Source of the DNA: Candidatus Helarchaeota archaeon
GTDB taxonomy: Archaea; Asgardarchaeota; Lokiarchaeia; Helarchaeales; RDOG01
Direction of reading: 5' to 3'
Length of the DNA: 50,648 bases
NCBI GenBank assembly: GCA_029838215.1
Contig: JALGVI010000007.1
Location: 1-50,648 of the forward strand
Positions within the stretch are counted from its first letter, which is position 1, and each line of letters opens with the position of its first letter. Positions 10,447 through 39,262 of this stretch are shown in pieces. Position numbers and translations under genes: made by a program. The notes under the pieces were generated by a model. That model was not told the origin of the DNA. It did not search any database and saw nothing but the letters and a program-made list of their open reading frames with translations.

Positions 10447-11826
10447 ATGTCGTTGAAAAAAAGAAAGCAAGTATTGATCAAAGAATTGATTCGTAAGAAT
10501 GTACTTCATGATCGTCGTTTAATTCGAGCCTTCGAAGAAATTCCAATGGAAAAATTCATTCCTGACCATCTTTTGGACTGGGATCGGATTTATCTCGACA
10601 TGCCACAACTATTTTACTTTAGAGATCCATTAAACCGCCGGACGATTAGTGCTCCTCACATGATATCGATCATGGTTGAAAGCCTGAACCTACAACCCGG
10701 CAATAATCTTCTCATACTGGGGTCAAAAAGCGGTTATATAAGTGCGATTTGCAGTCGACTCTGTCCTGAAGGGGAGATTTTCATCTTAGAAGCGATAAAA
10801 TCCATCAAGGAATCCACGGAGGCACTACTTCAAAAAATGGGATTGGATAAAAACATCACGATTATAGGTCCCATAAATCCTCTATTTGGCTTAAAGGAAC
10901 AAGCACCATGGCAGAAGATTTTAGTTACCGGACAAGTTGAAAAAGGTGATTTAGAATTCATTCTTTATCAATTGGATGAAAATGGCGGCGTTTTGTTTGC
11001 TCCCATTGGGAACATGTTCCAGCAAAAATTCACTCAAATAATTCGTGATGGAGACGAATTTTATTTTAATGAGATTGGTGATGTTGTCTTCGGTCCTTTA
11101 GATGTGGAACCGTCTTTTGATGATTCTGTTGATAATCTTGAAATGCCCGCTACAGAACCTCCAAGGTTCCAACCCATTGCGTTAAAAATTGATTTAGGAA
11201 TGGCAGAAGAGAAAATGCAGGAAATCATTCAGCGTTACTTTTATCAACAAAAGCAAAAGGTCGATGTCAGTGATGATGAGATTATTGAAACTGCAATGGA
11301 GCTTGCCGAAAAGCATGACGGGACGATCCACCTAATAACAATAGCTGATTACTTAAACGTAGATGAAAAACAGGTTGAAAAAGTCCTAAAGCAATCGAAG
11401 ATCGGTTCTATCCAAACGTTCACTTCCAGTTTAATAACTGATAAAATTTTCGTCTTGAACAAAGAAGATTATAAGAAAAAATTCCAATTACTATTAGACA
11501 CGTTAAAACCCGTCTTGGAAATTGTCTTGAACATGAAAAACGTCCATGATTCTGATAAACTCCTGAAATTCTTGAGTGAAATCGATGAAAAATTACAAAA
11601 CCTTAGGGAAATGACGATCGATGTCAAGATGAAAAAAATCAATCACTTGATAACTGAAATTAGAAGTAAGTGCTTGACAACAAAAAAATTGGAAGACCGG
11701 GTGGCATCAGATCCAAAAATTCTCAATGCCATCGATAAAGTGACCCTTCAATTGTTAGAAAAGATCGAATTATTACACGACACGCTTCTAGAACGGATTA
11801 ACAGTTTAGAAATTTTCCTATCTTAA
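10447..11826 (+). CDS. Protein-L-isoaspartate O-methyltransferase-like domain fused to a C-terminal winged-helix plus helical region
   Basis: AFEEIPMEKFIP, TISAPHM, LQPG..LILGSKSGY, GGVLFAPIG, VVFGPL; about 235 extra C-terminal residues. Confidence 0.8.
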   Translation: MSLKKRKQVLIKELIRKNVLHDRRLIRAFEEIPMEKFIPDHLLDWDRIYLDMPQLFYFRDPLNRRTISAPHMISIMVESLNLQPGNNLLILGSKSGYISAICSRLCPEGEIFILEAIKSIKESTEALLQKMGLDKNITIIGPINPLFGLKEQAPWQKILVTGQVEKGDLEFILYQLDENGGVLFAPIGNMFQQKFTQIIRDGDEFYFNEIGDVVFGPLDVEPSFDDSVDNLEMPATEPPRFQPIALKIDLGMAEEKMQEIIQRYFYQQKQKVDVSDDEIIETAMELAEKHDGTIHLITIADYLNVDEKQVEKVLKQSKIGSIQTFTSSLITDKIFVLNKEDYKKKFQLLLDTLKPVLEIVLNMKNVHDSDKLLKFLSEIDEKLQNLREMTIDVKMKKINHLITEIRSKCLTTKKLEDRVASDPKILNAIDKVTLQLLEKIELLHDTLLERINSLEIFLS

Positions 11827-14800
11827 TTTTTTTCTTTCATTTTTGTTTTAGTTTCATTTATTTTTTCTTTTATTTGTTGATATAGTTTTAAGGCTTCTTT
11901 TCCTTTTGATTGGAGATGATTTTTCTTGTCAATGAGACCGAAAGTATATAATGTCTTGAGGATCGAGCTCGTTTCTTTCTCTGAAATCTTTACTTCCTTT
12001 GAGATTTCCTTTATCGTGAAATATCCCCTGCCAATCGCTTCGAGCACTCTTGCCCCATGTAATCCATGAATCTCTTGAAGGTTATCAAGAGACCAGCGAG
12101 CGGTAATTTGAAGAGCCTTTGGAATTGTTTCTGCCAATGGGAAGTACTGAGATAGAATTTTTCCTGCGAGTTTGAACCGTTCTATGTCTCCATTCCAATC
12201 TTTTAAATCCTCGGTATAGCATAATTCAAACTCATTTACGTATCCATTCAATTGGTTGCGTATCACGTGCAAGTCTTCGTCAGCCATGATTGCTGCCGTA
12301 ACGTGATTTCCATGTGAAAAAATAATCTTGCTATCAAAATGGCTGATGCTTTTTAATGGCTTGTCGCTTTTTGTGATTTCACTAACGATTGAGCTTATAC
12401 CAAGCAAGGCACTCGTAACAAGAGACGAATCCACTTCTCTCTCACCACCAACACGCCGATCGAAAATCGCGGCACCTGTCTTCTTGTAAAACAAGTAAAT
12501 ATGCTTTATTTTCCGTTCCCAATGTCGTTCCCTTACTTTCTTGCGAATGCGATATGCGAAAAGTAGTCCAAGTAGAGTCACGCCAATTCCAACGAGCAAG
12601 AAAATGACCAAGAAAAGCGGACTTAACGGCGGCGTGTTGACAACGAGTGTTACCGTTTCCTGTGCTAGCAGATCCCCGTTTTGATTCCGCACGTAGACAT
12701 TTACTTCATATTGACCTGGAAGCATGCCAAACGTATTAATCGGTAAGATGAAATGACCATTGACGTATTGTAACGAACCGGAGCCATGAATCCATTCATA
12801 AGTCGCCAAATTATCTACACCTAACGACGTGCCGTGGTATCTATCGAAGAAATCAAACGTGAACTCCACCGTTTCACCGACAATGCCGACCTGAACATTA
12901 CCATCCGATATTGATGTATCAATGAAATCTGTCCACGGTAAAGTGCGGAGAATCACCTGCAAGCTACTATCCAAATAATGCTCTTTACTTGCCGTAATCA
13001 AAACATTATATGATTTCGTTTGACTGCTTGCTGTAAAATTAATGCGATACATGCCATTACTGATGTCAACATAATTAACTTGAGAATATCCTAAGAATGA
13101 AATTGTTGCATTGCTTAGCAGTTGATCAAATTCCGTATCGTTGAAAACGATGTAAAGATCCGCATCATTCTCGCCATAAGGGATTTCAATGATCGTGGTG
13201 TTTTGAGAACAAGCTTTCAATTCAGTAAAGGTATCACGTAGGGGAACCGGAACCAAGATTTGTTGGGTATCGAAGCGAAATCTGGAAGCGGTTATATTTA
13301 GTAAATCCGTGCTGGAAAGCCCGGTCGTGTTAACTATCAATTTATATTTATTGTTGTTTGATTCATTAAATGTCACGGCACCTATGATGGAAGCATTCAC
13401 ATCAATCGTTGCATCAGGAATTGGATCTCCAACTAATGTTTCATAATTTAATAAAATCGTTGCATTTCCACCATATGGGACGGAATTGATGGGATCGTGA
13501 GTTAGAATGGTCTCAAAGCGAAATATGATTATTAAATTTAAGGAACAATTCGAATAATATTGACTGGTAGAATTGATTTCTAACGTGTAGTTTTTGTCAT
13601 TCTGAAAGGTAAGTTCTGTTGTATCCAGAACTATGTCATATTCTCCAGTACCCTGGTCTGTAAGATTTAGAATACCCGTGCTCCAATTTAACTGAACATT
13701 TAAACCTGAAATGAGCTGATTTGTATTCGTATCATTTGCTCGCACGCGAATCAACAGCAAATCGCCATATTTCATTTCCGTGGTATCATCGATACGGGCA
13801 TCGAATGGCTCACGTAGGGAAATGCTGGATTGATGAACGATATTCATGACGGTAGAATTTTGACCTGATTCCGTTCCATTCGTCCACTGAACCATCACCT
13901 GATATGAACCACCAGTCGTATTTGTGCTTCCGATCGTGATATTTGGAAAAATTACCCATCCATTACTAGAACCTATTGATTGTCCGCTCCACCAAGTGGT
14001 ACCATTTGGTGCTTGAATCGTTAGATTTGCCATACTTCCCGCGAGATCAGTTTTCGTCTGAGTCTTCGTCCCTATTCTGGCGATCACTCTTGATTTATTG
14101 GTAACAAAGAATTCCGTGCTATTTGACCACGTGCTTCCCGTAAAAACTTGGGTTTGGATTTCTTGAACATAATTGTTGGAATCTGCCCTGATGATCCAAT
14201 ATCCATCAGGATATTCTGTCATGTTCGTTGTTGGGATGGAAGCATATCCGTCAAAATGCCCTCCTTGTATGTCACTAATACGATTGATTAAAGGATATAT
14301 TGGTTCAGCAACATACGTGAGGTTCCAATCTCTTGGCGTGGAAAAATTGAACGTGTGATTTCCAAAATGGCTCGGCACGCCAACATAATAATAAAATTCC
14401 CAACACGTCGAATTATCCTGAACCTCATAGTTCATTCCTATTTTTGAAGGGTCCATTGCATGAAGGCTTGAACCAGTCGTGTTCGCAAATAGATTCATGT
14501 CTACTTTAAAAGTCAGGTCAATTGGGAGAACAGGATCTGTTGATGAAATGGTTGGCGTGAAGCTGAAGTTTCCTTCGACTCTTTGATTAATTGAGTCATA
14601 TTCTATTGATCCAAGCTGAGTAACAGAACCTGAATTTTCCCCTATATCATCAACTAGAATGTCATTCATGGTTAGAGAAACATTAGATGGTTTTACCTTG
14701 CTTTTAAGATAGAGCTGAAAATTGTCGATCCAGATTTCTGGATTTGGTTCTGAACCATAGCTGATATCTGCAGAATGAGTCAATCCAATTTTGAGATTTA

Positions 14801-16286
14801 AATTCACGTGCGTTCCGTTATTTGGAAGATTGGCTGTTGAAATGGGAACAATTCCCGTATTATACCACGTATCTTTCTGTTCAATCTCGTGAAAACTTAT
14901 TAGATGGACTTTCTTCCATGCATCTTCAAGTCCGATATCTTCAAAACTTGACGTGATAAAATCGCCATAAACATCTCTCGTGTCATCAATGAAAAGAACG
15001 GATTGATATGACGAGTTCAGCCAATTTAGAGTTCTATTAATGAGATCCGTGCGCTCCTGATCCGCCAAGACATCACTAATGTCAAATCCGAAGAACATTG
15101 TTGCATTTTCATGGGTACTTGAAGACCAATTTATGGTAGAACGTTGTCGACTCGATTGAACCACGTCATATTTGAGAGGCACGTCTGCATCGGGGCTGGG
15201 ATCGTCAAAGTAACACGGCGATGCTAATGAGTATAAAGCATAATCATTAATTCCATCAAAAATTCCACCGGCAATACCATCAAGGTTTTGACCACTTGAC
15301 AATTGTCCGCTATGGTTTGCATGAAGGTACCTATAAAGCCAAGTACTCTCGGGAGGATTTTGGAACTCATAGGAAATTCCCTGTCCCGTCAAAAGCAATT
15401 TACCCTTGTCATTCAGGTAATTTGTTATGAGCATTCTGTCACTTGAGGTGAGTGTGTTTGTAGTTGTCCAACCTGTTGCCCAAACGACAATATCATATTT
15501 TTGCAGGTATGAAAGGTCGGGAACACCTCTATCCGTGTAATTATAGTAAAAATAGATTTTATTACTCGGACTTTGAAGGTCCGTTTGATCTACGGCGACA
15601 CTAATCTTGAATGCGCCTGCCCCTTCCAAGGACCAACTTGAATTAACCTTGTAATCAAATTGCAATCCCGCCCAATTTACTGATCCCCTCTCGATGGAAA
15701 TGTTTTGCTCGAATGAAGCATCTGTCGTCGTATAATAAACAGATCGCGAATTTCCCTGATCCCAATTGTTTAGTTTGATGTGGATACCTCTTGAATTATT
15801 CACGCCTTCCCCATCCTCAATGGCATAATTCCATCCCGGATGAGATATAGAGGAAAAGTCTGAAGCGTGAGCCGTCCAATTCCCCGTGGACTCGAAATCA
15901 ACATCCTTTATCCAACAGCGATTTTCATATATGTCATTCAAGTACATTTCGATCCTGTTTCCATCCCAGGTTGAAGGTAAAGAAACGTAAGCCGACATGT
16001 TTTGAATTTCGCCGGATGTTTCATTATAGTAAAGCATGATTTCTTGATCTGAATTCGTTCGATTTGCATGTTCATAAATCGTGAGAGGAGGTGCAATATT
16101 GTTGCTTTCTTTTAATAGCAAAGGGAAAGGGTCTGCACCTATCGTGGAAGGATTATACGTTGTCGCTAAAAAGAAGGGAATCATTGGCATGAATGATAAA
16201 AATAATGAAAATAAAATTAAAGAACCCAGAAATAAACTTTTTATTCTAAAATCATCTTTTCGGAAATTTGTCATAAATCTCGACAC
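11823..16286 (-). CDS. Giant single-pass surface protein: glycosylated beta-rich ectodomain, TM, cytoplasmic longin-like domain, winged helix
   Basis: N-terminal hydrophobic helix, many N-x-S/T sequons, Ig-like repeats, TM LFLVIFLLVGIGVTLLGLLFAY, longin-like IYLFYKKTGAAIF...DSSLVTSALLGI...FELCY, wHTH TIKEISKEVKISEKETSSILKTLYTFGLID. Alternative ATG start at 16274 with AGGTG. Confidence 0.8.
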   Translation of the reverse strand: MSRFMTNFRKDDFRIKSLFLGSLILFSLFLSFMPMIPFFLATTYNPSTIGADPFPLLLKESNNIAPPLTIYEHANRTNSDQEIMLYYNETSGEIQNMSAYVSLPSTWDGNRIEMYLNDIYENRCWIKDVDFESTGNWTAHASDFSSISHPGWNYAIEDGEGVNNSRGIHIKLNNWDQGNSRSVYYTTTDASFEQNISIERGSVNWAGLQFDYKVNSSWSLEGAGAFKISVAVDQTDLQSPSNKIYFYYNYTDRGVPDLSYLQKYDIVVWATGWTTTNTLTSSDRMLITNYLNDKGKLLLTGQGISYEFQNPPESTWLYRYLHANHSGQLSSGQNLDGIAGGIFDGINDYALYSLASPCYFDDPSPDADVPLKYDVVQSSRQRSTINWSSSTHENATMFFGFDISDVLADQERTDLINRTLNWLNSSYQSVLFIDDTRDVYGDFITSSFEDIGLEDAWKKVHLISFHEIEQKDTWYNTGIVPISTANLPNNGTHVNLNLKIGLTHSADISYGSEPNPEIWIDNFQLYLKSKVKPSNVSLTMNDILVDDIGENSGSVTQLGSIEYDSINQRVEGNFSFTPTISSTDPVLPIDLTFKVDMNLFANTTGSSLHAMDPSKIGMNYEVQDNSTCWEFYYYVGVPSHFGNHTFNFSTPRDWNLTYVAEPIYPLINRISDIQGGHFDGYASIPTTNMTEYPDGYWIIRADSNNYVQEIQTQVFTGSTWSNSTEFFVTNKSRVIARIGTKTQTKTDLAGSMANLTIQAPNGTTWWSGQSIGSSNGWVIFPNITIGSTNTTGGSYQVMVQWTNGTESGQNSTVMNIVHQSSISLREPFDARIDDTTEMKYGDLLLIRVRANDTNTNQLISGLNVQLNWSTGILNLTDQGTGEYDIVLDTTELTFQNDKNYTLEINSTSQYYSNCSLNLIIIFRFETILTHDPINSVPYGGNATILLNYETLVGDPIPDATIDVNASIIGAVTFNESNNNKYKLIVNTTGLSSTDLLNITASRFRFDTQQILVPVPLRDTFTELKACSQNTTIIEIPYGENDADLYIVFNDTEFDQLLSNATISFLGYSQVNYVDISNGMYRINFTASSQTKSYNVLITASKEHYLDSSLQVILRTLPWTDFIDTSISDGNVQVGIVGETVEFTFDFFDRYHGTSLGVDNLATYEWIHGSGSLQYVNGHFILPINTFGMLPGQYEVNVYVRNQNGDLLAQETVTLVVNTPPLSPLFLVIFLLVGIGVTLLGLLFAYRIRKKVRERHWERKIKHIYLFYKKTGAAIFDRRVGGEREVDSSLVTSALLGISSIVSEITKSDKPLKSISHFDSKIIFSHGNHVTAAIMADEDLHVIRNQLNGYVNEFELCYTEDLKDWNGDIERFKLAGKILSQYFPLAETIPKALQITARWSLDNLQEIHGLHGARVLEAIGRGYFTIKEISKEVKISEKETSSILKTLYTFGLIDKKNHLQSKGKEALKLYQQIKEKINETKTKMKEKN

Positions 16287-32602: not shown

Positions 32603-32713
32603 TTATTCATCTTCTCCTGTAATCGGTTGCTTATCTCTGATTTCTGATAATTTTTGTTCTACTTCTTTTTTTATCAACTCACGAATATATTTTTCGTCAA
32701 GTATATTACTCAT
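32603..32713 (-). CDS. Candidate 36-aa microprotein MSNILDEKYIRELIKKEVEQKLSEIRDKQPITGEDE
   Basis: Read by hand; ATG at 32713 with AAGGA upstream, TAA at 32603; amphipathic helix; below the ORF-track cutoff. Confidence 0.5.
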   Translation of the reverse strand: MSNILDEKYIRELIKKEVEQKLSEIRDKQPITGEDE

Positions 32714-32839: not shown

Positions 32840-33943
32840 TCAAATTCTTTTAGGGATGTTGCGATAGTATTTCTCTACCAATTCGGTGGCAGATTTAAAC
32901 ATATTTTCCGAAATGGATTTTGCTTGTAATTCTTTTTCAAATATCATTTCAAAATCTCGTGTAAACAATTCTAAGTTCTCACGGAGATATCGTGATGATT
33001 TTGAAGATAATAATCCAACCATGATGTGCTCTCCTTTGGAAAAAAGCAGGATTCCTTTTTCAAATTTGATCTCTTCGATTAGTCCAACTTGTAGAACCTT
33101 CTCACTCATTGCCCGTAGTGCCGAGAACAAACCTGCAAGTAGATCATCAACAACGAGACTTCTCGATTCAGTCCAAATATAATTGAAAATTGAATATCCG
33201 CCTTTCAGCAGTATTACCGTCAAACGAAAAGCCGTGAAAGGCAAGATAAACATGATTTCGGGATTGAAGAGTAAAATCAGTAGAAAGACGAACGGTACCG
33301 TTGCAATACTTATCTCCCCTATAAGAGCAAGTATCCAGATAATAACATCGGGGATAAGTCCAATAAGAAGCTCGGGAAGAAAACTAATTAATATATTTAT
33401 GCCAATATAGACAGAGATCACAACTGCAATTGTAAAAGTCTGTTTTTTGAGATTTTGTGGTGCGTTCCTCGAAGCCCTTGCGAAGAATTCAATGATATAT
33501 AGCATTAAGAGTGCCTCAAATGCCAGACCAAAGATCATCCATAGACCTGAATAATTGAAATATGGAAATCCAAACATGTAATTTATTGTTGAAGTTCCGG
33601 GAAGCCATGCAAAAGCCGCCGCCATTGAACCAACTACGGCAATTGAAAGCAATTTTACTATATTTGGTTGTTCATTAGTTATGTTATTCAGTCCACGAAC
33701 TAAAACAATCATGCCCACTACAAAGAAAATATAACCGATCTTATGTAAAAACTCATTCATGAAAAGAAGCGCAAATACTCTAATGAAAGGATAAACGAGA
33801 TAAATGACTAATGCAATTAGAAATGGTTTGAAATGCTTATTTTTGTTATACTTAATTTCACGTATCATTAGATAAGAAGAAATTATTCCGAAAATAACAA
33901 TGATAAAATCTCGATAAACTAGAGGTACAAAATTTAAAACCAT
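32840..33943 (-). CDS. Seven-TM membrane protein with C-terminal longin-like domain
   Basis: Seven hydrophobic segments in residues ~10-225, then RLTVILLKGGYSIF...DDLLAGLFSALRAM..K...IEEIKF...FTRDFEMIF. Confidence 0.8.
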   Translation of the reverse strand: MVLNFVPLVYRDFIIVIFGIISSYLMIREIKYNKNKHFKPFLIALVIYLVYPFIRVFALLFMNEFLHKIGYIFFVVGMIVLVRGLNNITNEQPNIVKLLSIAVVGSMAAAFAWLPGTSTINYMFGFPYFNYSGLWMIFGLAFEALLMLYIIEFFARASRNAPQNLKKQTFTIAVVISVYIGINILISFLPELLIGLIPDVIIWILALIGEISIATVPFVFLLILLFNPEIMFILPFTAFRLTVILLKGGYSIFNYIWTESRSLVVDDLLAGLFSALRAMSEKVLQVGLIEEIKFEKGILLFSKGEHIMVGLLSSKSSRYLRENLELFTRDFEMIFEKELQAKSISENMFKSATELVEKYYRNIPKRI

Positions 33944-34101
33944 AGAATCTCTCTGCCCAACCGATTTTTTCTCTTGAAGTGAAATTATATTAATTCTACA
34001 TCTAATTGTTATAATACTTGCATCTATATTTTATTTTTGCCAATTCATGAGTATTTTTTCGAAGAATTTAAACTACTTCAAAGTTTTTGATTTCCAATTA
34101 A

Positions 34102-34632
34102 TCAAATGCTTAAATACGTGTCAATGTGCATCAGGATTCGCCGCATGATTTTTTCATTGTCCTGAAACTTTTCCCGTATTGCTTTTTTTAATAGATTTAC
34201 TTGCTCTTTCAAGATATTTAATCGTTCTTCCAAATATTGATTTCTATCAATGAGCGAGTATGTTCCAGGACCGCCGTCTTCGTCAATTGTAATTTCAGTA
34301 ATTGTTCCGACTTGAAATGACACGCCGCCTTCTTCTCTTTTTACCAAATCATCTTTTTCAAGGTTAAATGTCAGTAATTCAATTCCCGAAGGTGTAATGG
34401 AATATTTCGGTCGATGCTTTTTCCCCGAAACCATTATTACTGTTCGGTTGACAAGCCTGTTGTCGATCAATTCCTTTAAAGTTCGGTCTAGGAGAAAGTC
34501 ATTAATTTTTAATGCATTCTTGAGTGTTGAAAATGAGGATTGTGAATTCTGGTTACTTGTGAGAGAGAGATGTCTCAAGACACTTCTCACGTGCTTTTTT
34601 TCTAGGAGTTTTAATTGCTGAAAAGAAACCAT
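34102..34632 (-). CDS. Winged-helix transcriptional regulator with C-terminal coiled coil
   Basis: SFSTLKNAL...LDRTLKELIDNRLVNR...YSITPSG; zipper-like LEERLNILKEQVNLLK. Confidence 0.75.
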   Translation of the reverse strand: MVSFQQLKLLEKKHVRSVLRHLSLTSNQNSQSSFSTLKNALKINDFLLDRTLKELIDNRLVNRTVIMVSGKKHRPKYSITPSGIELLTFNLEKDDLVKREEGGVSFQVGTITEITIDEDGGPGTYSLIDRNQYLEERLNILKEQVNLLKKAIREKFQDNEKIMRRILMHIDTYLSI

Positions 34633-34884: not shown

Positions 34885-36324
34885 ATGACTGAAGAAGGCA
34901 TGTGGTCGGATCTTCCTTTTAACGTTGGTCTTGTCTACGAAGGCGAACGAATTCGTGGTAAACAGACTTATGTTGAATTGGGTGGTCCAAAACAACCTGC
35001 AAAATTCGAATTAGTCCAGGTCAAAGATGTCAAGGATATCAAGGACATGGACGTAGAAATCATTGGTCCTGACATTCCGGACATGAAAGAAGGCGGAAAT
35101 TATCCGATCGGAGTGTTAGTTGAAGTCGGTGGTAAACAAGCTGAAAAAGACCTTGAAGCCGTGCTCGAAAGACGCATTCACGAATTTTCCAACTTCATTG
35201 AAGGATTAATGCATTTAAACCAGCGTTATGACATCTGGATGCGAATTTCAAAGGCCGCCGTAAAGAAAGGCTTCAATTCATTGAAGATGTACGGCACTGT
35301 TCTTGCACGTCTATACAAGTCTGAATTCGGAAAAATTCTTGAAAAGATTCAAGTGAAACTCTATACTGATCCCGATAAAATTAAACCCATTTATGATAAT
35401 GCAATGGGAATTTGGGAAGCCAGAGATGCACGAGCAAGAGACCTCTCCGATGATGAAGTAGACATGTTCTATGGTTGTACTCTATGTTCCAGCTTTGCAC
35501 CATCCCACGTTTGCACCGTTACGCCTGGGCGAATTGCCTTGTGTGGTGCTATAAACTGGTTTGATGCACGTGCCGCAGCAAAAATTGACCCTGAAGGCCC
35601 TAATTTTGCCATTCCAAAAGGCGAGTGTCTTGATGAATTAGCTGGTGAATATTCTGGAATTAACGAAATCACGAAGAAAAAATCACTTGGAGAAATCGAA
35701 CGGGTAACTTTACACACGATATTAAGTCCTTATAACCATACATCTTGTGGATGTTTTGAAGCCATCGCATTTTTCGTGCCTGAAGTTGATGGTGTGGGAA
35801 TTGTTGACCGAAATTACAAGGGCACTACCGTAAACGGATTACCCTTCAGTACAATGGCAAATTCCACAGGTGGCGGAAAACAAGTCGAAGGGTTCGTCGG
35901 AATGGCTATCGAGTACATGCGTTCCAAGAAATTCCTTCAAGCCGATGGTGGATGGAATAGAATAGTTTGGATGCCTGCAGGAATAAAAAACCGCATTATT
36001 GATGCAATTCCTAAAGACATCGTAGACAAGATTGCGACCGAAGAAGTTGCTACCGACCTAGATTCTTTAAAATCATTCCTCAAGGAGAAGAATCACCCTG
36101 TCGTTAAGAATTGGGTGGAAGAAGCCGAAGAGGAAGAAGAAGAAGAAGCCGCACCCATGGTCCCAGCTGGGGGAATGCAGATGCCATCCATGGTTCCAAT
36201 GATGGGAGGCATTCAAGTAGCGAGTGGCGGTGCTAACTGGAAGATAATACTAAAAGGTGCCAAGATCTACGCCGACGAAATCCATATCAAGCGGATCCAG
36301 CCTAAAAAGAAGAAGAAGAAATGA
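34885..36324 (+). CDS. cdhC: Acetyl-CoA decarbonylase/synthase complex beta subunit (acetyl-CoA synthase)
   Basis: ELGGPK, HLNQRYDIW, CTLCSSFAPSHVC, LCGAINW, HTSCGCFE, DGGWNRIVWMP; poly-Glu and Met/Gly linker at the C-terminus. Confidence 0.96.
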   Translation: MTEEGMWSDLPFNVGLVYEGERIRGKQTYVELGGPKQPAKFELVQVKDVKDIKDMDVEIIGPDIPDMKEGGNYPIGVLVEVGGKQAEKDLEAVLERRIHEFSNFIEGLMHLNQRYDIWMRISKAAVKKGFNSLKMYGTVLARLYKSEFGKILEKIQVKLYTDPDKIKPIYDNAMGIWEARDARARDLSDDEVDMFYGCTLCSSFAPSHVCTVTPGRIALCGAINWFDARAAAKIDPEGPNFAIPKGECLDELAGEYSGINEITKKKSLGEIERVTLHTILSPYNHTSCGCFEAIAFFVPEVDGVGIVDRNYKGTTVNGLPFSTMANSTGGGKQVEGFVGMAIEYMRSKKFLQADGGWNRIVWMPAGIKNRIIDAIPKDIVDKIATEEVATDLDSLKSFLKEKNHPVVKNWVEEAEEEEEEEAAPMVPAGGMQMPSMVPMMGGIQVASGGANWKIILKGAKIYADEIHIKRIQPKKKKKK

Positions 36325-36364
36325 TTTTATTTCTTCTGAACCGAACTCTAGGAGTTGAAATAGT

Positions 36365-36499
36365 ATGGCCGAAGATTTTACCGAACGTCTCAATCGCCTT
36401 TTAAAGGATATCGATGAGGTTGTCATCAAGAATGCACGAATTGAAGCAGACGAGATCGAGCTCGGTCAATCAGAACCTACGAAGAGGAAGAAAAAATGA
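36365..36499 (+). CDS. 44-aa microprotein MAEDFTERLNRLLKDIDEVVIKNARIEADEIELGQSEPTKRKKK (stand-alone CdhC/CdhD terminal motif)
   Basis: Read by hand; GGAG at 36351-36354, TGA overlaps the cdhD ATG (ATGA); motif shared with both neighbours. Confidence 0.75.
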   Translation: MAEDFTERLNRLLKDIDEVVIKNARIEADEIELGQSEPTKRKKK

Positions 36500-37806
36500 G
36501 CGAAGAAATTAAAAAAATCATCGATGGTATTTCCAAGGATGCCGAAGAAATCGTCTTAAAGAATGTTGCTATCGTGGCAGACCAATTGGGTTTCGAACTT
36601 CAAGGCGGTGGCGGTGCCGATCCGCGAGTTCCTTACATGCAGGCAGGGATAATGCAAGCAATGCAAATCTTGCAAGGTGCTGTAGGAGGGCAAGTGATGA
36701 TGCCATCTGGTGCTGGTCTTGCACCTGGAATTGCTGCAGTGTTAAAGTGGAAAGCGCAGACTTTTAATTCGCCCGTTGAAACATATCCGGGTGAAATTGT
36801 TGTCGTGGAATTTTGCCGTTCTGGAAAAGGTGGAGAGGTCGTTAAAGCTGGTGGACAAAAAGCCATGAATTTCTACAATTTTGATTCTTTGATGCCACAT
36901 ACTCCAATCGTAACAGGAGATGTATTTGATATTCCCATTCACAAGAAAGGACGTGAATCTTTTCTCAGACTTTCAAAACCTGTCAAGGATCACTTCCTAA
37001 ATGGTCCCATAGGCGATGTCTCAACAGATGTCGGTGAATGGGCAAAGGCAAACGTGAAATATGGAGCTCAAATGGTCACGATGCATAATATCGGAACTGA
37101 TCCTACAATTCCGAAAAAGCTTGGTGGTCAAAAGTCTCCAAGAGAAGCTGCAAAGAATCTAGAAGAAGTTCTACAGGCTGTAAAATGTCCTGTCGTAATT
37201 GGTGGCTCTGGCAATCCAACAGAAGACATCAAGGTATTCGAAGCCTGTGCTGCAGTATCTGAATCAGAACGACTGCTAATCAGCTCAACTAACCTTGATG
37301 ATTATACAAAAATCGTCCCAATTGCTAAGAAATATGATCATAACATCTTGGGATTCACCCAACTCGACCTAAATAACGCCAAAAAATTGAATGCAGAAAT
37401 GCTTAAGCTAGGAATGCCTAAGGACCACATCGTGATGGACCCAACTTGTGCACCCCTTGGTTACGGAATTCAATATTCATTTTCCATCTATCAACGAATA
37501 CGACTTGCTGCCCTCAAAGGTGAAACGGACATTCAATGTCCGATGAGTGGTGGAACAACAAATGCATGGGGCGCGCGCGAGGCATTTTTGGCAAATAAAG
37601 TCAAGCCAGAATGGGGTGAGCGTAATTATCGAGGTCCACTTTGGGAGATCTTGACTGCATTCATGTTATCCATCGCGGGTCTTGACATAGCAATGATGTT
37701 ACATCCGCTTGCAATCCAATCTTTCCGACAAATAGTTACTGAATTGACCGCACGCGAAAAAGCCGCCAAGATAAATCACTTGGATTGGCTTACGATGGAG
37801 GTATGA
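36496..37806 (+). CDS. cdhD: ACDS delta subunit (corrinoid Fe-S protein small subunit)
   Basis: GGQKAMNFYNF, VVIGGSGNP..D..VFE..A, VMDPT..PLGYG..YS, AWGARE, GPLWE. Confidence 0.95.
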   Translation: MSEEIKKIIDGISKDAEEIVLKNVAIVADQLGFELQGGGGADPRVPYMQAGIMQAMQILQGAVGGQVMMPSGAGLAPGIAAVLKWKAQTFNSPVETYPGEIVVVEFCRSGKGGEVVKAGGQKAMNFYNFDSLMPHTPIVTGDVFDIPIHKKGRESFLRLSKPVKDHFLNGPIGDVSTDVGEWAKANVKYGAQMVTMHNIGTDPTIPKKLGGQKSPREAAKNLEEVLQAVKCPVVIGGSGNPTEDIKVFEACAAVSESERLLISSTNLDDYTKIVPIAKKYDHNILGFTQLDLNNAKKLNAEMLKLGMPKDHIVMDPTCAPLGYGIQYSFSIYQRIRLAALKGETDIQCPMSGGTTNAWGAREAFLANKVKPEWGERNYRGPLWEILTAFMLSIAGLDIAMMLHPLAIQSFRQIVTELTAREKAAKINHLDWLTMEV

Positions 37807-37816
37807 GGTGAGTTAA

Positions 37817-39262
37817 ATGGCAAAACTGTCTCCAATTAAAGTTGTATCGGCTTTACCCGGCACGAATTGTAGAGAATGCGGCGAAGAAACTTGCATGGCA
37901 TTTGCAGTCAAGCTCATTGACCATCAAGTCGATATAAACGATTGTAAGCCCCTCGTATCCGAGAAAAAATATGCGAAGAAATTGAAGGCTCTTAAGGAAA
38001 TTGCAACACCACCCATCCGTAAGGTCGTTATTGGTACGGGTGATCGTAAAATGATTGTTGGCGATGAAGAAGTCATGTATCGTCATGAATTGACGTACTA
38101 TAACCCTTCACCAATCTGTATCGAAGTTGCCGATGATGATTTAGACGAAGTTGCAAAAGTCACAAAATATGTCAACGACTATGAACTTTACCGCATTGGT
38201 GCCAACTATTATTTGGACGGCGTTGCAATCCGCTGCCGATCAAATGATGCAAAAACGTTTGCCGCTGCAGTCAAAAAAGCCAAAGAAATAACTGACATGC
38301 CTTTAATTCTTTGTTCCACCAACCCCGAAATTTTACGTGCTGGAGCAATGGTTGTAAAGGACAAAAATCCACTTCTTTATGCTGCAACCAGAGATAATTG
38401 GGAAAAAGTCGGAAAATTAGCACTGGAATTAAATTGTCCCGTTGCTGTATATTCTTCTGACCTATCCGAACTCAAGTCGCTTGCCACAAGCTTGCATGAA
38501 GCAGGAGTTGAGCAAATCGTACTTGATCCCGGATGTTATTATGGTTCTGGAAACGTCGCGGATACCATTGGTGCACATCTTCAACTCAAGCGTGCTGCAA
38601 TTGAGAAAGATGACAAATTGGTTGGTTTTCCCACAATGGGTGTAACCGCTACTGCGTTTATCGGCAAGGATAAGAATATGTCCGAAGGAGAACGAATCGC
38701 AGCCGCATACGAAGAAGGAAAGATGGCTTGTCTCCTAATGTGTAACGCCTGTAACCTCTTGATCATGCATACAATGGATAACTGGTTTCAACTGGCAATG
38801 GTCGTCGTGCGCGAAAACGTGTATTCCGATCCACGCGTGAATCCTTCAGTAGATGCAAAACTTTACGAAGTTGGCTCTCCGGATCAAGATAGTCCTGTAT
38901 TTATTACGACAAATTATACAATGACCTACTTTACGGTTCGATCGGATCTCCAAGATTTGCGTCTGAATGCTTGGCTTTTGGTCATTGACACGGAAGGAAT
39001 CTCCGTAGAATCTGCCGTAGCTGGCGGTCAAATGGTTGCCTCGAAAGTGGCTGAAGCCATTAAGGAGACTGGAGTTCTTGACAAAGTCAATCATAGGATT
39101 GTAATTATCCCTGGCCTTGCCGCGCGAATCTCCGGAGAATTAGAAGAACTTGCCGATCTCAAGGTTGTCGTTGGTCCAAGAGACTCAAGTGGTATCGAAA
39201 AACTGATGAAAGGATACGATAAGGATAGCTTAATGAAAGATTACCAAGCCATGAAGGCATAA
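37817..39262 (+). CDS. cdhE: ACDS gamma subunit (corrinoid Fe-S protein large subunit)
   Basis: LPGTNCRECGEETCMAFA...C [4Fe-4S] motif, YRHEL, TTNYTMTYF, IIPGLAARISG, VGPRDS. Confidence 0.95.
   Translation: MAKLSPIKVVSALPGTNCRECGEETCMAFAVKLIDHQVDINDCKPLVSEKKYAKKLKALKEIATPPIRKVVIGTGDRKMIVGDEEVMYRHELTYYNPSPICIEVADDDLDEVAKVTKYVNDYELYRIGANYYLDGVAIRCRSNDAKTFAAAVKKAKEITDMPLILCSTNPEILRAGAMVVKDKNPLLYAATRDNWEKVGKLALELNCPVAVYSSDLSELKSLATSLHEAGVEQIVLDPGCYYGSGNVADTIGAHLQLKRAAIEKDDKLVGFPTMGVTATAFIGKDKNMSEGERIAAAYEEGKMACLLMCNACNLLIMHTMDNWFQLAMVVVRENVYSDPRVNPSVDAKLYEVGSPDQDSPVFITTNYTMTYFTVRSDLQDLRLNAWLLVIDTEGISVESAVAGGQMVASKVAEAIKETGVLDKVNHRIVIIPGLAARISGELEELADLKVVVGPRDSSGIEKLMKGYDKDSLMKDYQAMKA

Follow-up and report, generated by a model that had tools for sequence, protein, structure and literature searches.

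The DNA analysed here (the window) is a stretch of 50,648 nt from Candidatus Helarchaeota archaeon (Helarchaeales), comprising positions 1-50,648 of the forward strand of contig JALGVI010000007.1 in assembly GCA_029838215.1. Our subject is the gene at 32840..33943 on the minus strand, an open reading frame (ORF) of 367 codons with an ATG start codon, whose 367-aa product is referred to as P0001. Based on the ORF, its translation, full-length relatives, and an AlphaFold2 (AF2) model, P0001 is a seven-helix membrane bundle with a cytoplasmic longin domain and a member of a large Asgard family. A preliminary description of the window had noted seven transmembrane (7TM) segments and a longin-like domain at 32840-33943, an observation that our analysis confirms overall. 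The nearest relative, the hypothetical protein P0002 from 'Candidatus Helarchaeales archaeon', is 66% identical and aligned from M1 to the last residue; since it matches end to end at an equal length of 367 aa, the start and gene model of P0001 are sound. P0001 contains no cysteine, and searches of Pfam, NCBIfam, and PDB with the whole protein sequence returned nothing significant.

The AF2 model of P0001, built on an alignment of 150 relatives, had a mean predicted local distance difference test (pLDDT) score of 94.7 and a predicted template modelling (pTM) score of 0.89. It places a seven-helix membrane domain at residues 7-226 (33266..33925; this and all features within the gene are on the minus strand), with transmembrane (TM) helices at 7-33, 36-61, 64-90, 95-111, 133-160, 163-192, and 199-226, the same number as the preliminary description had counted. 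Hydropathy alone was ambiguous, with 7-9 segments, and a count of eight or nine TM helices was rejected, as the last hydrophobic stretch (residues 230-246) corresponds to strand beta1 of the C-terminal domain. The predicted inner loops carry 11 Lys and Arg residues versus 3 on the outer side, which gives an N-out/C-in orientation and a cytoplasmic C-terminal domain. Little of the protein is exposed on the outer face, namely six N-terminal residues, two very short loops, and a beta-hairpin in the TM4-TM5 loop (residues 118-131, 33551..33592; AF2 strands 118-123 and 126-131) that is the only sizeable extracellular element. G125 within the hairpin is 80% conserved in the family and is flanked by P115 (73%) and G133 (66%). 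An N130-Y-S sequon in the hairpin is kept in the 66%-identical P0002.

On the inner side, family conservation picked out the basic cytoplasmic TM5-TM6 loop, RASRNAPQNLKKQ (residues 156-168, 33440..33478). The preliminary description had already drawn attention to this loop, which we find to hold the family motif A-P-x-x-L-K, better conserved than any other motif in the membrane part (A161 63%, P162 93%, L165 63%, K166 75%, in 139-140 sequences). The conserved inner-loop motifs are A161-P162-x-x-L165-K166 between TM5 and TM6 and D/N86...E91 after TM3. By comparison, the membrane core conserves only two glycines, and the outer face P115, G125, and G133.

A structural search with VIA-align over ~48,000 solved chains, independent of Foldseek, matched the membrane part to ACER3 (Z 14.5, root-mean-square deviation (rmsd) 3.8, 204 residues), US28 (Z 13.7), AdipoR2 (Z 13.4), TMEM87A (Z 13.2), and channelrhodopsin (Z 11.4). 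Viral and cellular G protein-coupled receptors (GPCRs) matched at Z 11.4-13.7, with rmsd 3.7-4.8 across 200-222 residues; scores of this size fall in the noise band stated for helical bundles. Foldseek gave E values of 1e-3 to 2e-2, none better than 1e-3. Because such scores are usual for helical bundles, we draw no homology from them, and as modelled, the membrane domain would be a generic 7TM bundle. The GPCR motifs D/ERY at TM3, CWxP in TM6, and NPxxY in TM7 are not conserved in the family; P0001 has N227-P228, of which only the Pro is conserved, and without cysteine it is unable to match the GPCR disulfide between TM3 and extracellular loop 2. Pfam searches at E<=10 produced no match of P0001 to 7TMR-DISM, 7TMR-HD, or HisKA_7TM.

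With ACER3 and AdipoR2 among the best folds and channelrhodopsin further down, the membrane domain could in principle be a CREST/PAQR-type enzyme or channel (alkaline ceramidase, adiponectin receptor) or a rhodopsin, with the longin domain as an accessory. PAQR proteins and ceramidases have their N-terminus inside, however, opposite to the N-out topology of P0001, and the family alignment shows no conserved His, Asp, Ser, or other polar residue in the membrane core, so the metal-site residues of a CREST/PAQR hydrolase are missing and that candidate was rejected. A microbial rhodopsin was ruled out by the lack of a mid-TM7 retinal-binding Lys: TM7 (199-226) of P0001 contains no Lys, as the preliminary description had also remarked, and the only place in TM7 where family members often have Lys is position 226, at the cytoplasmic boundary. 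Given also that the Z values of these matches lie within the helical-bundle noise band, an enzyme, channel, or rhodopsin is highly improbable.

TM7 is joined to the first strand of the C-terminal domain by a conserved tether at residues 227-237 (33233..33265), defined by conservation and the AF2 model, with the family motif P-x-L-x-x-I-L-P-F (P228 91%, L234 93%, P235 88%, F236 87%). The cytoplasmic longin domain follows at residues 238-367 (32843..33232), recognised by AF2, VIA-align, and a domain profile. Its elements in the model are strands at 238-245 and 251-256, a helix at 266-284, strands at 291-293, 298-303, and 307-313, and helices at 318-334 and 346-359. This is the longin order b-b-a-b-b-b-a-a, with the N-terminal helix absent and the C-terminal helices present, and the same order was obtained in a model of the C-terminal domain alone (pLDDT 82.6). 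As only about 11 residues separate TM7 from beta1 and the whole model has a pTM of 0.89, we infer a docked position for the longin domain, beneath the bundle and in contact with the conserved inner loops.

In the full-length model, residues 236-365 matched CPLANE (Z 13.3), Sec22 (12.8), Bet5 (12.4), and VAMP7 (12.1-12.3). With the domain-only model, 50/50 top VIA-align rows belonged to the longin/roadblock superfamily, the best being Sec22 (3egd_C; Z 12.9, rmsd 2.6, 121 of 137 residues), and other longins including synbindin (Z 12.0), VAMP7 (11.9), CPLANE (11.3), AP-3 sigma (11.2), sedlin (11.1), and SRX (10.4). Longins spanned residues 10-138 of the 140 in this model (Z 9.6-12.9, 112-126 aligned residues). 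Roadblock proteins were weaker and covered only residues ~7-113 (Z 7.2-8.7; MglC 8.7, MglB 7.4, LAMTOR 7.4, MK-D1 roadblock 7.4), while solved NPRL2 (8fw5_B) scored Z 7.7, below the SNARE and TRAPP longins. A roadblock/LC7 identity was rejected on the lower Z values, the partial coverage, the absence of the N-terminal helix order, and the longin-type C-terminal helices. The structural models thus indicate that the C-terminal domain is a true longin fold, and the longin-like domain of the preliminary description is borne out.

The connection of this domain with curated longin families at the sequence level appears to be transitive only, with weak direct support. A longin-domain profile searched against PDB sequences produced only chance-level rows, and P0001 itself has no Pfam hit; single family members weakly match Fuz_longin_1 (E 0.014) and Intu_longin_1 (E 0.066). 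The domain profile (A4) matched 41 ORFs in this genome at E<=1e-4. Among 20 of those 41 that were scanned, three matched Fuz_longin_1 (best E 1.1e-5), one Longin PF13774 (E 4e-4), one Intu_longin_1, and two roadblock families.

The extent of the family was assessed with an exhaustive HMMER search over 1.84 billion cluster representatives, which yielded 473 representatives with a threshold of E<=1e-3 and 251 with one of E<=1e-10; the majority matched end to end. Among the best 150 hits, 100 were 300-400 aa long, 23 had a C-terminal extension of ~75 aa, 3 were longer fusions, and 24 were fragments. The family profile matched 285/301 sampled genomes of the phylum and 90/90 high-quality ones, giving ~1,200 matches in the phylum. 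Full-length matches are spread over several classes, and a genome often holds more than one copy. This genome has three: P0001, C86:31583-32671, and C169:815-1822. Among the family members looked up, none was functionally named and none had a Pfam hit on the module itself, and Atlas clusters, looked up with the relative P0031, were 'hypothetical', 93-100% Archaea, and mostly Promethearchaeota. In these records the family has no functional name, and it has been seen almost only in Asgard archaea so far. One member, P0017 (348 aa), is labelled with the bacterial name 'Candidatus Deferrimicrobium sp.' and lies on a 110-kb contig; mis-binning or gene transfer could account for it.

Within this family, P0001 has a single close relative among those sampled. 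Apart from P0002, all sampled relatives are <=31% identical to it, and four further genomes of the same order contain no close orthologue (best 27-29% identity). P0001 is a fast-evolving, lineage-specific paralogue. Each of the longin positions G249, W257, G287, L320, F327, F331, and F360 is more than 90% conserved in the family. The combination of a variable input, a conserved inner face and output, and expansion into paralogues would be expected of a receptor family.

The low conservation of the membrane core and the small size of the outer face would also fit a passive anchor or trafficking-type adaptor, in which the helices only place the longin platform on the membrane and nothing is sensed, comparable to LAMTOR1 in Ragulator or the TM anchor of longin SNAREs. 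Other proteins of this genome do anchor the same type of longin with one or two TM helices. Seven helices, however, far exceed the needs of an anchor, conservation of the inner loops and tether extends over the whole phylum, and in the kinase fusions described below the module stands where a sensor kinase has its input. We consider a pure anchor unlikely.

The same longin type recurs elsewhere in the genome. The window also encodes a 1487-aa surface protein (gene 11823-16286), and a longin domain homologous to that of P0001 lies in its cytoplasmic tail (12135..12512, minus strand), followed by a winged helix. Profile A4 matches residues 1259-1384 of this protein (E 1.9e-12), and BLASTP aligned P0001 residues 299-367 with residues 1321-1392 (E 9e-6), in agreement with the earlier suggestion that the two genes share a core. 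Pfam matches to winged helix-turn-helix domains lie at residues 1414-1484. Giant Asgard surface proteins of this kind resemble P0001 in having the homologous longin directly behind the last membrane helix on the cytoplasmic side, but they have one TM helix and an ectodomain of ~1200 aa, whereas P0001 has a seven-helix bundle and almost no ectodomain. Across this genome, the number of TM helices ahead of this longin type is none, one (with a giant ectodomain), two, or seven, and several of the longin proteins have a winged helix or a winged-helix-like tail at their C-terminal end. The tandem genes C60:3071-3832 (-) and C60:3860-4552 (-) encode longin proteins with winged-helix-like tails, as judged by eye; one of the two has two N-terminal TM helices, and the domain order is that of the 11823 tail.

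Rare fusions in the family reveal what the module can be connected to. In P0067 and P0110, it is followed by a helical linker and then HisKA (E 2.5e-16 and 3.9e-20, respectively) and HATPase_c (E 7e-29 and 7e-28); the two clusters together hold about a dozen member sequences, and genomes of the same class carry forms of 525-650 aa. The general rule cited in the preliminary description, that prokaryotic 7TM sensors feed kinases, thus also applies within this family, while P0001 itself has neither HisKA nor HATPase_c in Pfam searches. In P0031, the module continues into winged-helix domains, and in the ~435-aa subfamily the same winged-helix module (PF24266, E 9e-8) is encoded immediately upstream on the same strand.

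Longins have been linked to two-component signalling before. Liu et al. (bioRxiv 10.1101/2020.10.19.343400; Nature 2021) describe 'NPRL2-like longin' families of Asgard archaea in which the longin is joined to domains of two-component signalling. They resemble the P0001 family in pairing an Asgard longin with histidine-kinase parts, as in P0067 and P0110, and with winged-helix modules, as in NPRL2-type proteins. A 7TM input, which the P0001 family has, goes unmentioned in the text (10.1101/2020.10.19.343400). The two-component fusions of that work may include kinase-fused members of the P0067/P0110 type.

The gene upstream of P0001 offers a candidate partner of the second kind. At 34102..34632, on the same (minus) strand, lies a gene for a 176-aa HxlR-like winged-helix protein (Pfam HxlR E 1.8e-5, HTH_34 E 1.2e-4), separated from the P0001 gene by an AT-rich spacer of 158 bp (33944..34101, minus strand) in which TATA-like runs were read. 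The longin domain might hold or release this protein, giving a membrane-tethered, two-gene, one-component-like control of a transcription factor. Proximity and shared strand fit such an arrangement, as do the independent links between longins and winged helices in the 11823 tail, P0031, the upstream PF24266 gene of the ~435-aa subfamily, and the C60 proteins. Several points speak against it: the HxlR-like protein has no paralogue in this genome, its gene lies beside none of the sampled relatives, and the spacer may split the pair into two transcription units. The neighbourhood comparison left out the contigs of P0002 (the sole close relative), P0012, P0031, and P0017, and the sampled relatives are all <=31% identical to P0001. 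A winged helix need not mean DNA binding either, as the DUF742 guanine nucleotide exchange factors (GEFs) of conservons use a helix-turn-helix (HTH) fold for GTPase regulation (PMC11343762). Taken together, we regard transcription-factor control through the HxlR-like protein as doubtful.

The preliminary description had instead proposed a receptor wired directly to GTPase control. In this version, the longin domain would itself be the platform for a GEF or GTPase-activating protein (GAP), directly switching one of the ~75 small GTPases of the cell, as a one-polypeptide analogue of a GPCR with its G protein or of a 7TM receptor with a regulator of G protein signalling (RGS) domain. The true longin fold, closest to the GTPase-binding longins of Sec22, TRAPP, and Fuzzy/Mon1 type, is consistent with this proposal, as are the weak matches of members to Fuz_longin_1 and Intu_longin_1 and the stronger Fuz_longin_1 matches of paralogues given above. 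This genome has 70-76 genes for Ras/Arf-type small GTPases, and longin ORFs adjoin them more often than other ORFs do (6/41 versus 122/3467; odds ratio 4.7, Fisher p 0.003), although such adjacency figures are indicative only, since the loci lack independence and a single genome supplies the background rate. One of the six is C52:226-1323 (-), a distant 7TM-longin gene of 365 aa with seven hydrophobic segments, which lies 45 bp from the Arf-like GTPase gene C52:1368-1910 (-). In its subfamily (loci L053-L076), 4 of about 22 loci have a GTPase gene next to the 7TM-longin gene.

The picture differs for P0001 and its own subfamily. The 50.6-kb contig of P0001 holds no GTPase gene. Of the subfamily loci, 7/21 have a GTPase gene no more than 8 kb away, about the chance rate from gene density, and 1/21 has an adjacent one (p 0.53). 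None of the 41 profile-detected longin ORFs is fused to a GTPase; the known fusions of the module are to a kinase or winged helices, and longins also have non-GTPase roles, for example in SNAREs (PMC10933270). Direct wiring to a GTPase is thus unsupported for P0001 and its subfamily. The analogy with GPCRs and 7TM-RGS proteins is fair for topology, with seven TM helices, the N-terminus outside, and a longin domain in the cytoplasm. We retain direct GTPase control as a live but tentative minority reading; that the built-in longin serves a specific Ras/Arf-type GTPase as an exchange factor or GAP platform, with GPCR-like logic, is if anything slightly less likely.

The C52 subfamily is expanded in the order; 16 hits, a tandem array among them, come from one relative. 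Pairs of 7TM-longin genes in tandem on the same strand, tens of bases apart, recur in both this subfamily and that of P0001 (G162:C167:19987-22147, G264:C126:36706-38866, L054, L055, L065, L074, L075). A split form is found at L044:6991-7797 (+), just upstream of a full-length member, where a 134-aa multi-TM ORF is followed by a 101-aa ORF matching the longin profile. By analogy with eukaryotic longin complexes, tandem pairs may reflect longin heterodimers.

The reading we favour, at a probability of roughly 55%, is that the 7TM-longin protein is a modular membrane sensor whose output platform is the longin domain, with the output hard-wired in some relatives and acting in trans for P0001. The seven-helix bundle would sense a membrane-borne or small ligand, or a property of the membrane, and this input would shift the inner loops, which in turn would move the docked longin domain. 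That domain would probably serve as a platform in the form of a homo- or heterodimer, binding or releasing a cytoplasmic partner. In relatives, the output would be hard-wired as a histidine kinase, through a helical linker, or as a winged-helix module, either fused or encoded next door, while that of P0001 would act in trans. A small GTPase or its regulator is a possible partner for P0001; the adjacent HxlR-like winged-helix protein is a less likely one, and the remaining probability falls to something else.

Several observations weigh against this modular sensor. Kinase and winged-helix fusions are rare, with 3 of the 150 best hits longer than 460 aa, and the HxlR-like gene is not a neighbour of the sampled relatives. 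The spacer upstream of P0001, to judge from its AT-rich sequence, may hold a separate promoter for the P0001 gene. The Z values of the membrane domain are inside the noise band for helical proteins and match only a generic 7TM bundle. No ligand or partner is on record for any family member, and the term 'sensor' itself derives from architecture and conservation.

The other neighbours vary among relatives and include a CPBP/Rce1-like protease (two loci), AIM24, a glycosyltransferase, and a nucleotidyltransferase. The Rce1-like genes, of the type II CAAX prenyl endopeptidase family, lie beside family members in unrelated genomes (L033:9205-9978 (-) and L047:9242-10096 (+)). At its own locus, the P0001 gene has the HxlR-like gene and cdhC as neighbours and is followed by the genes for a fumarase-class lyase and a cyclase-family protein. 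The acetyl-CoA decarbonylase/synthase cluster that begins with cdhC lies at 34885-39262 (+), next to the P0001 gene, and we found no functional link between the 7TM-longin gene and this cluster, the fumarase-class lyase, or the cyclase-family gene. A putative, unannotated 36-codon ORF (MSNILDEKYIRELIKKEV...) at 32603-32713 (-) lies in the 364-bp gap between the P0001 gene and the fumarase-class lyase gene.

Comparison with known systems places P0001 among familiar parts. Eukaryotic longins such as Sec22/VAMP7/Ykt6, the TRAPP synbindin subunits Bet5/Trs23, and sedlin share the fold and the order of strands and helices over the whole P0001 domain, as do the AP and COPI sigma/mu/zeta subunits, SRX of SR-alpha, and the first longin domains of Fuzzy/Inturned and Mon1/Ccz1, but none shows a significant direct sequence match. 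Longin SNAREs have the longin domain first and one TM helix last, whereas the longin of P0001 is C-terminal to its 7TM bundle, and eukaryotic GEF and GAP longins form soluble multi-subunit complexes, whereas that of P0001 is built onto a membrane bundle. GPCRs and the plant 7TM-RGS protein AtRGS1 share with P0001 an N-out/C-in bundle, conserved inner loops, and a cytoplasmic fold of the GTPase-regulator type; they have no sequence motifs in common with it, and the output of P0001 is a longin rather than an RGS domain or a heterotrimeric G protein. In 7TMR-DISM, 7TMR-HD, and HisKA_7TM proteins, seven-helix inputs likewise precede cytoplasmic signalling domains, including histidine kinases. A longin is not known among the outputs of these three.

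The conservons of Actinobacteria (CvnA-D, MfpB-E) provide a precedent for the GTPase proposal: in these systems, a sensor kinase in the membrane works together with a small GTPase, a GAP of the roadblock type, and DUF742 as a GEF with an HTH fold (PMC11343762, PMC13621833). Given the HTH-fold GEF, a link to winged helices is on its own no argument against GTPase regulation. All four types of part are linked to 7TM-longin modules somewhere in Asgard genomes. Conservons, however, are separate proteins from one conserved operon, with a roadblock protein and a sensor that is not 7TM, in contrast to the single polypeptide and longin domain of P0001, and the P0001 locus has no operon of this type (sensor kinase, roadblock, DUF742, Ras-like GTPase). 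The architecture is a variant on known kinds of parts, membrane sensors and longin platforms, and is not a new kind of system.

Tran et al. solved structures of Asgard roadblock proteins and GTPases, obtained no longin structure, and cite 41 predicted longin domains in Lokiarchaeum (PMC10933270). They report that Asgard GTPase genes are generally found outside operons with longin or roadblock genes, and make no mention of membrane-spanning longin proteins (PMC10933270). The 7TM-longin architecture is likewise not described in structure-based Asgard surveys.

Eukaryotes use the longin fold to control small GTPases. Small GTPases number in the dozens in Asgard genomes, as do longin and roadblock proteins, and gene order rarely pairs the two (PMC10933270); a phylum-wide, multi-copy 7TM-longin family offers an entry point to the inputs and pairings of longins. 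The family places some longin platforms on the inner face of the cell membrane, where a membrane sensor may drive them, and its kinase-fused and winged-helix-fused relatives are ready-made readouts for finding the signal. If the GTPase proposal is true, a ligand sensed at the membrane would directly switch a small GTPase, and in the lineage from which eukaryotes arose, signalling from receptor to GTPase would have had a prokaryotic forerunner in this family or been invented there independently. If not, the longin fold would have been a general signal-transducing module before its eukaryotic specialisation.

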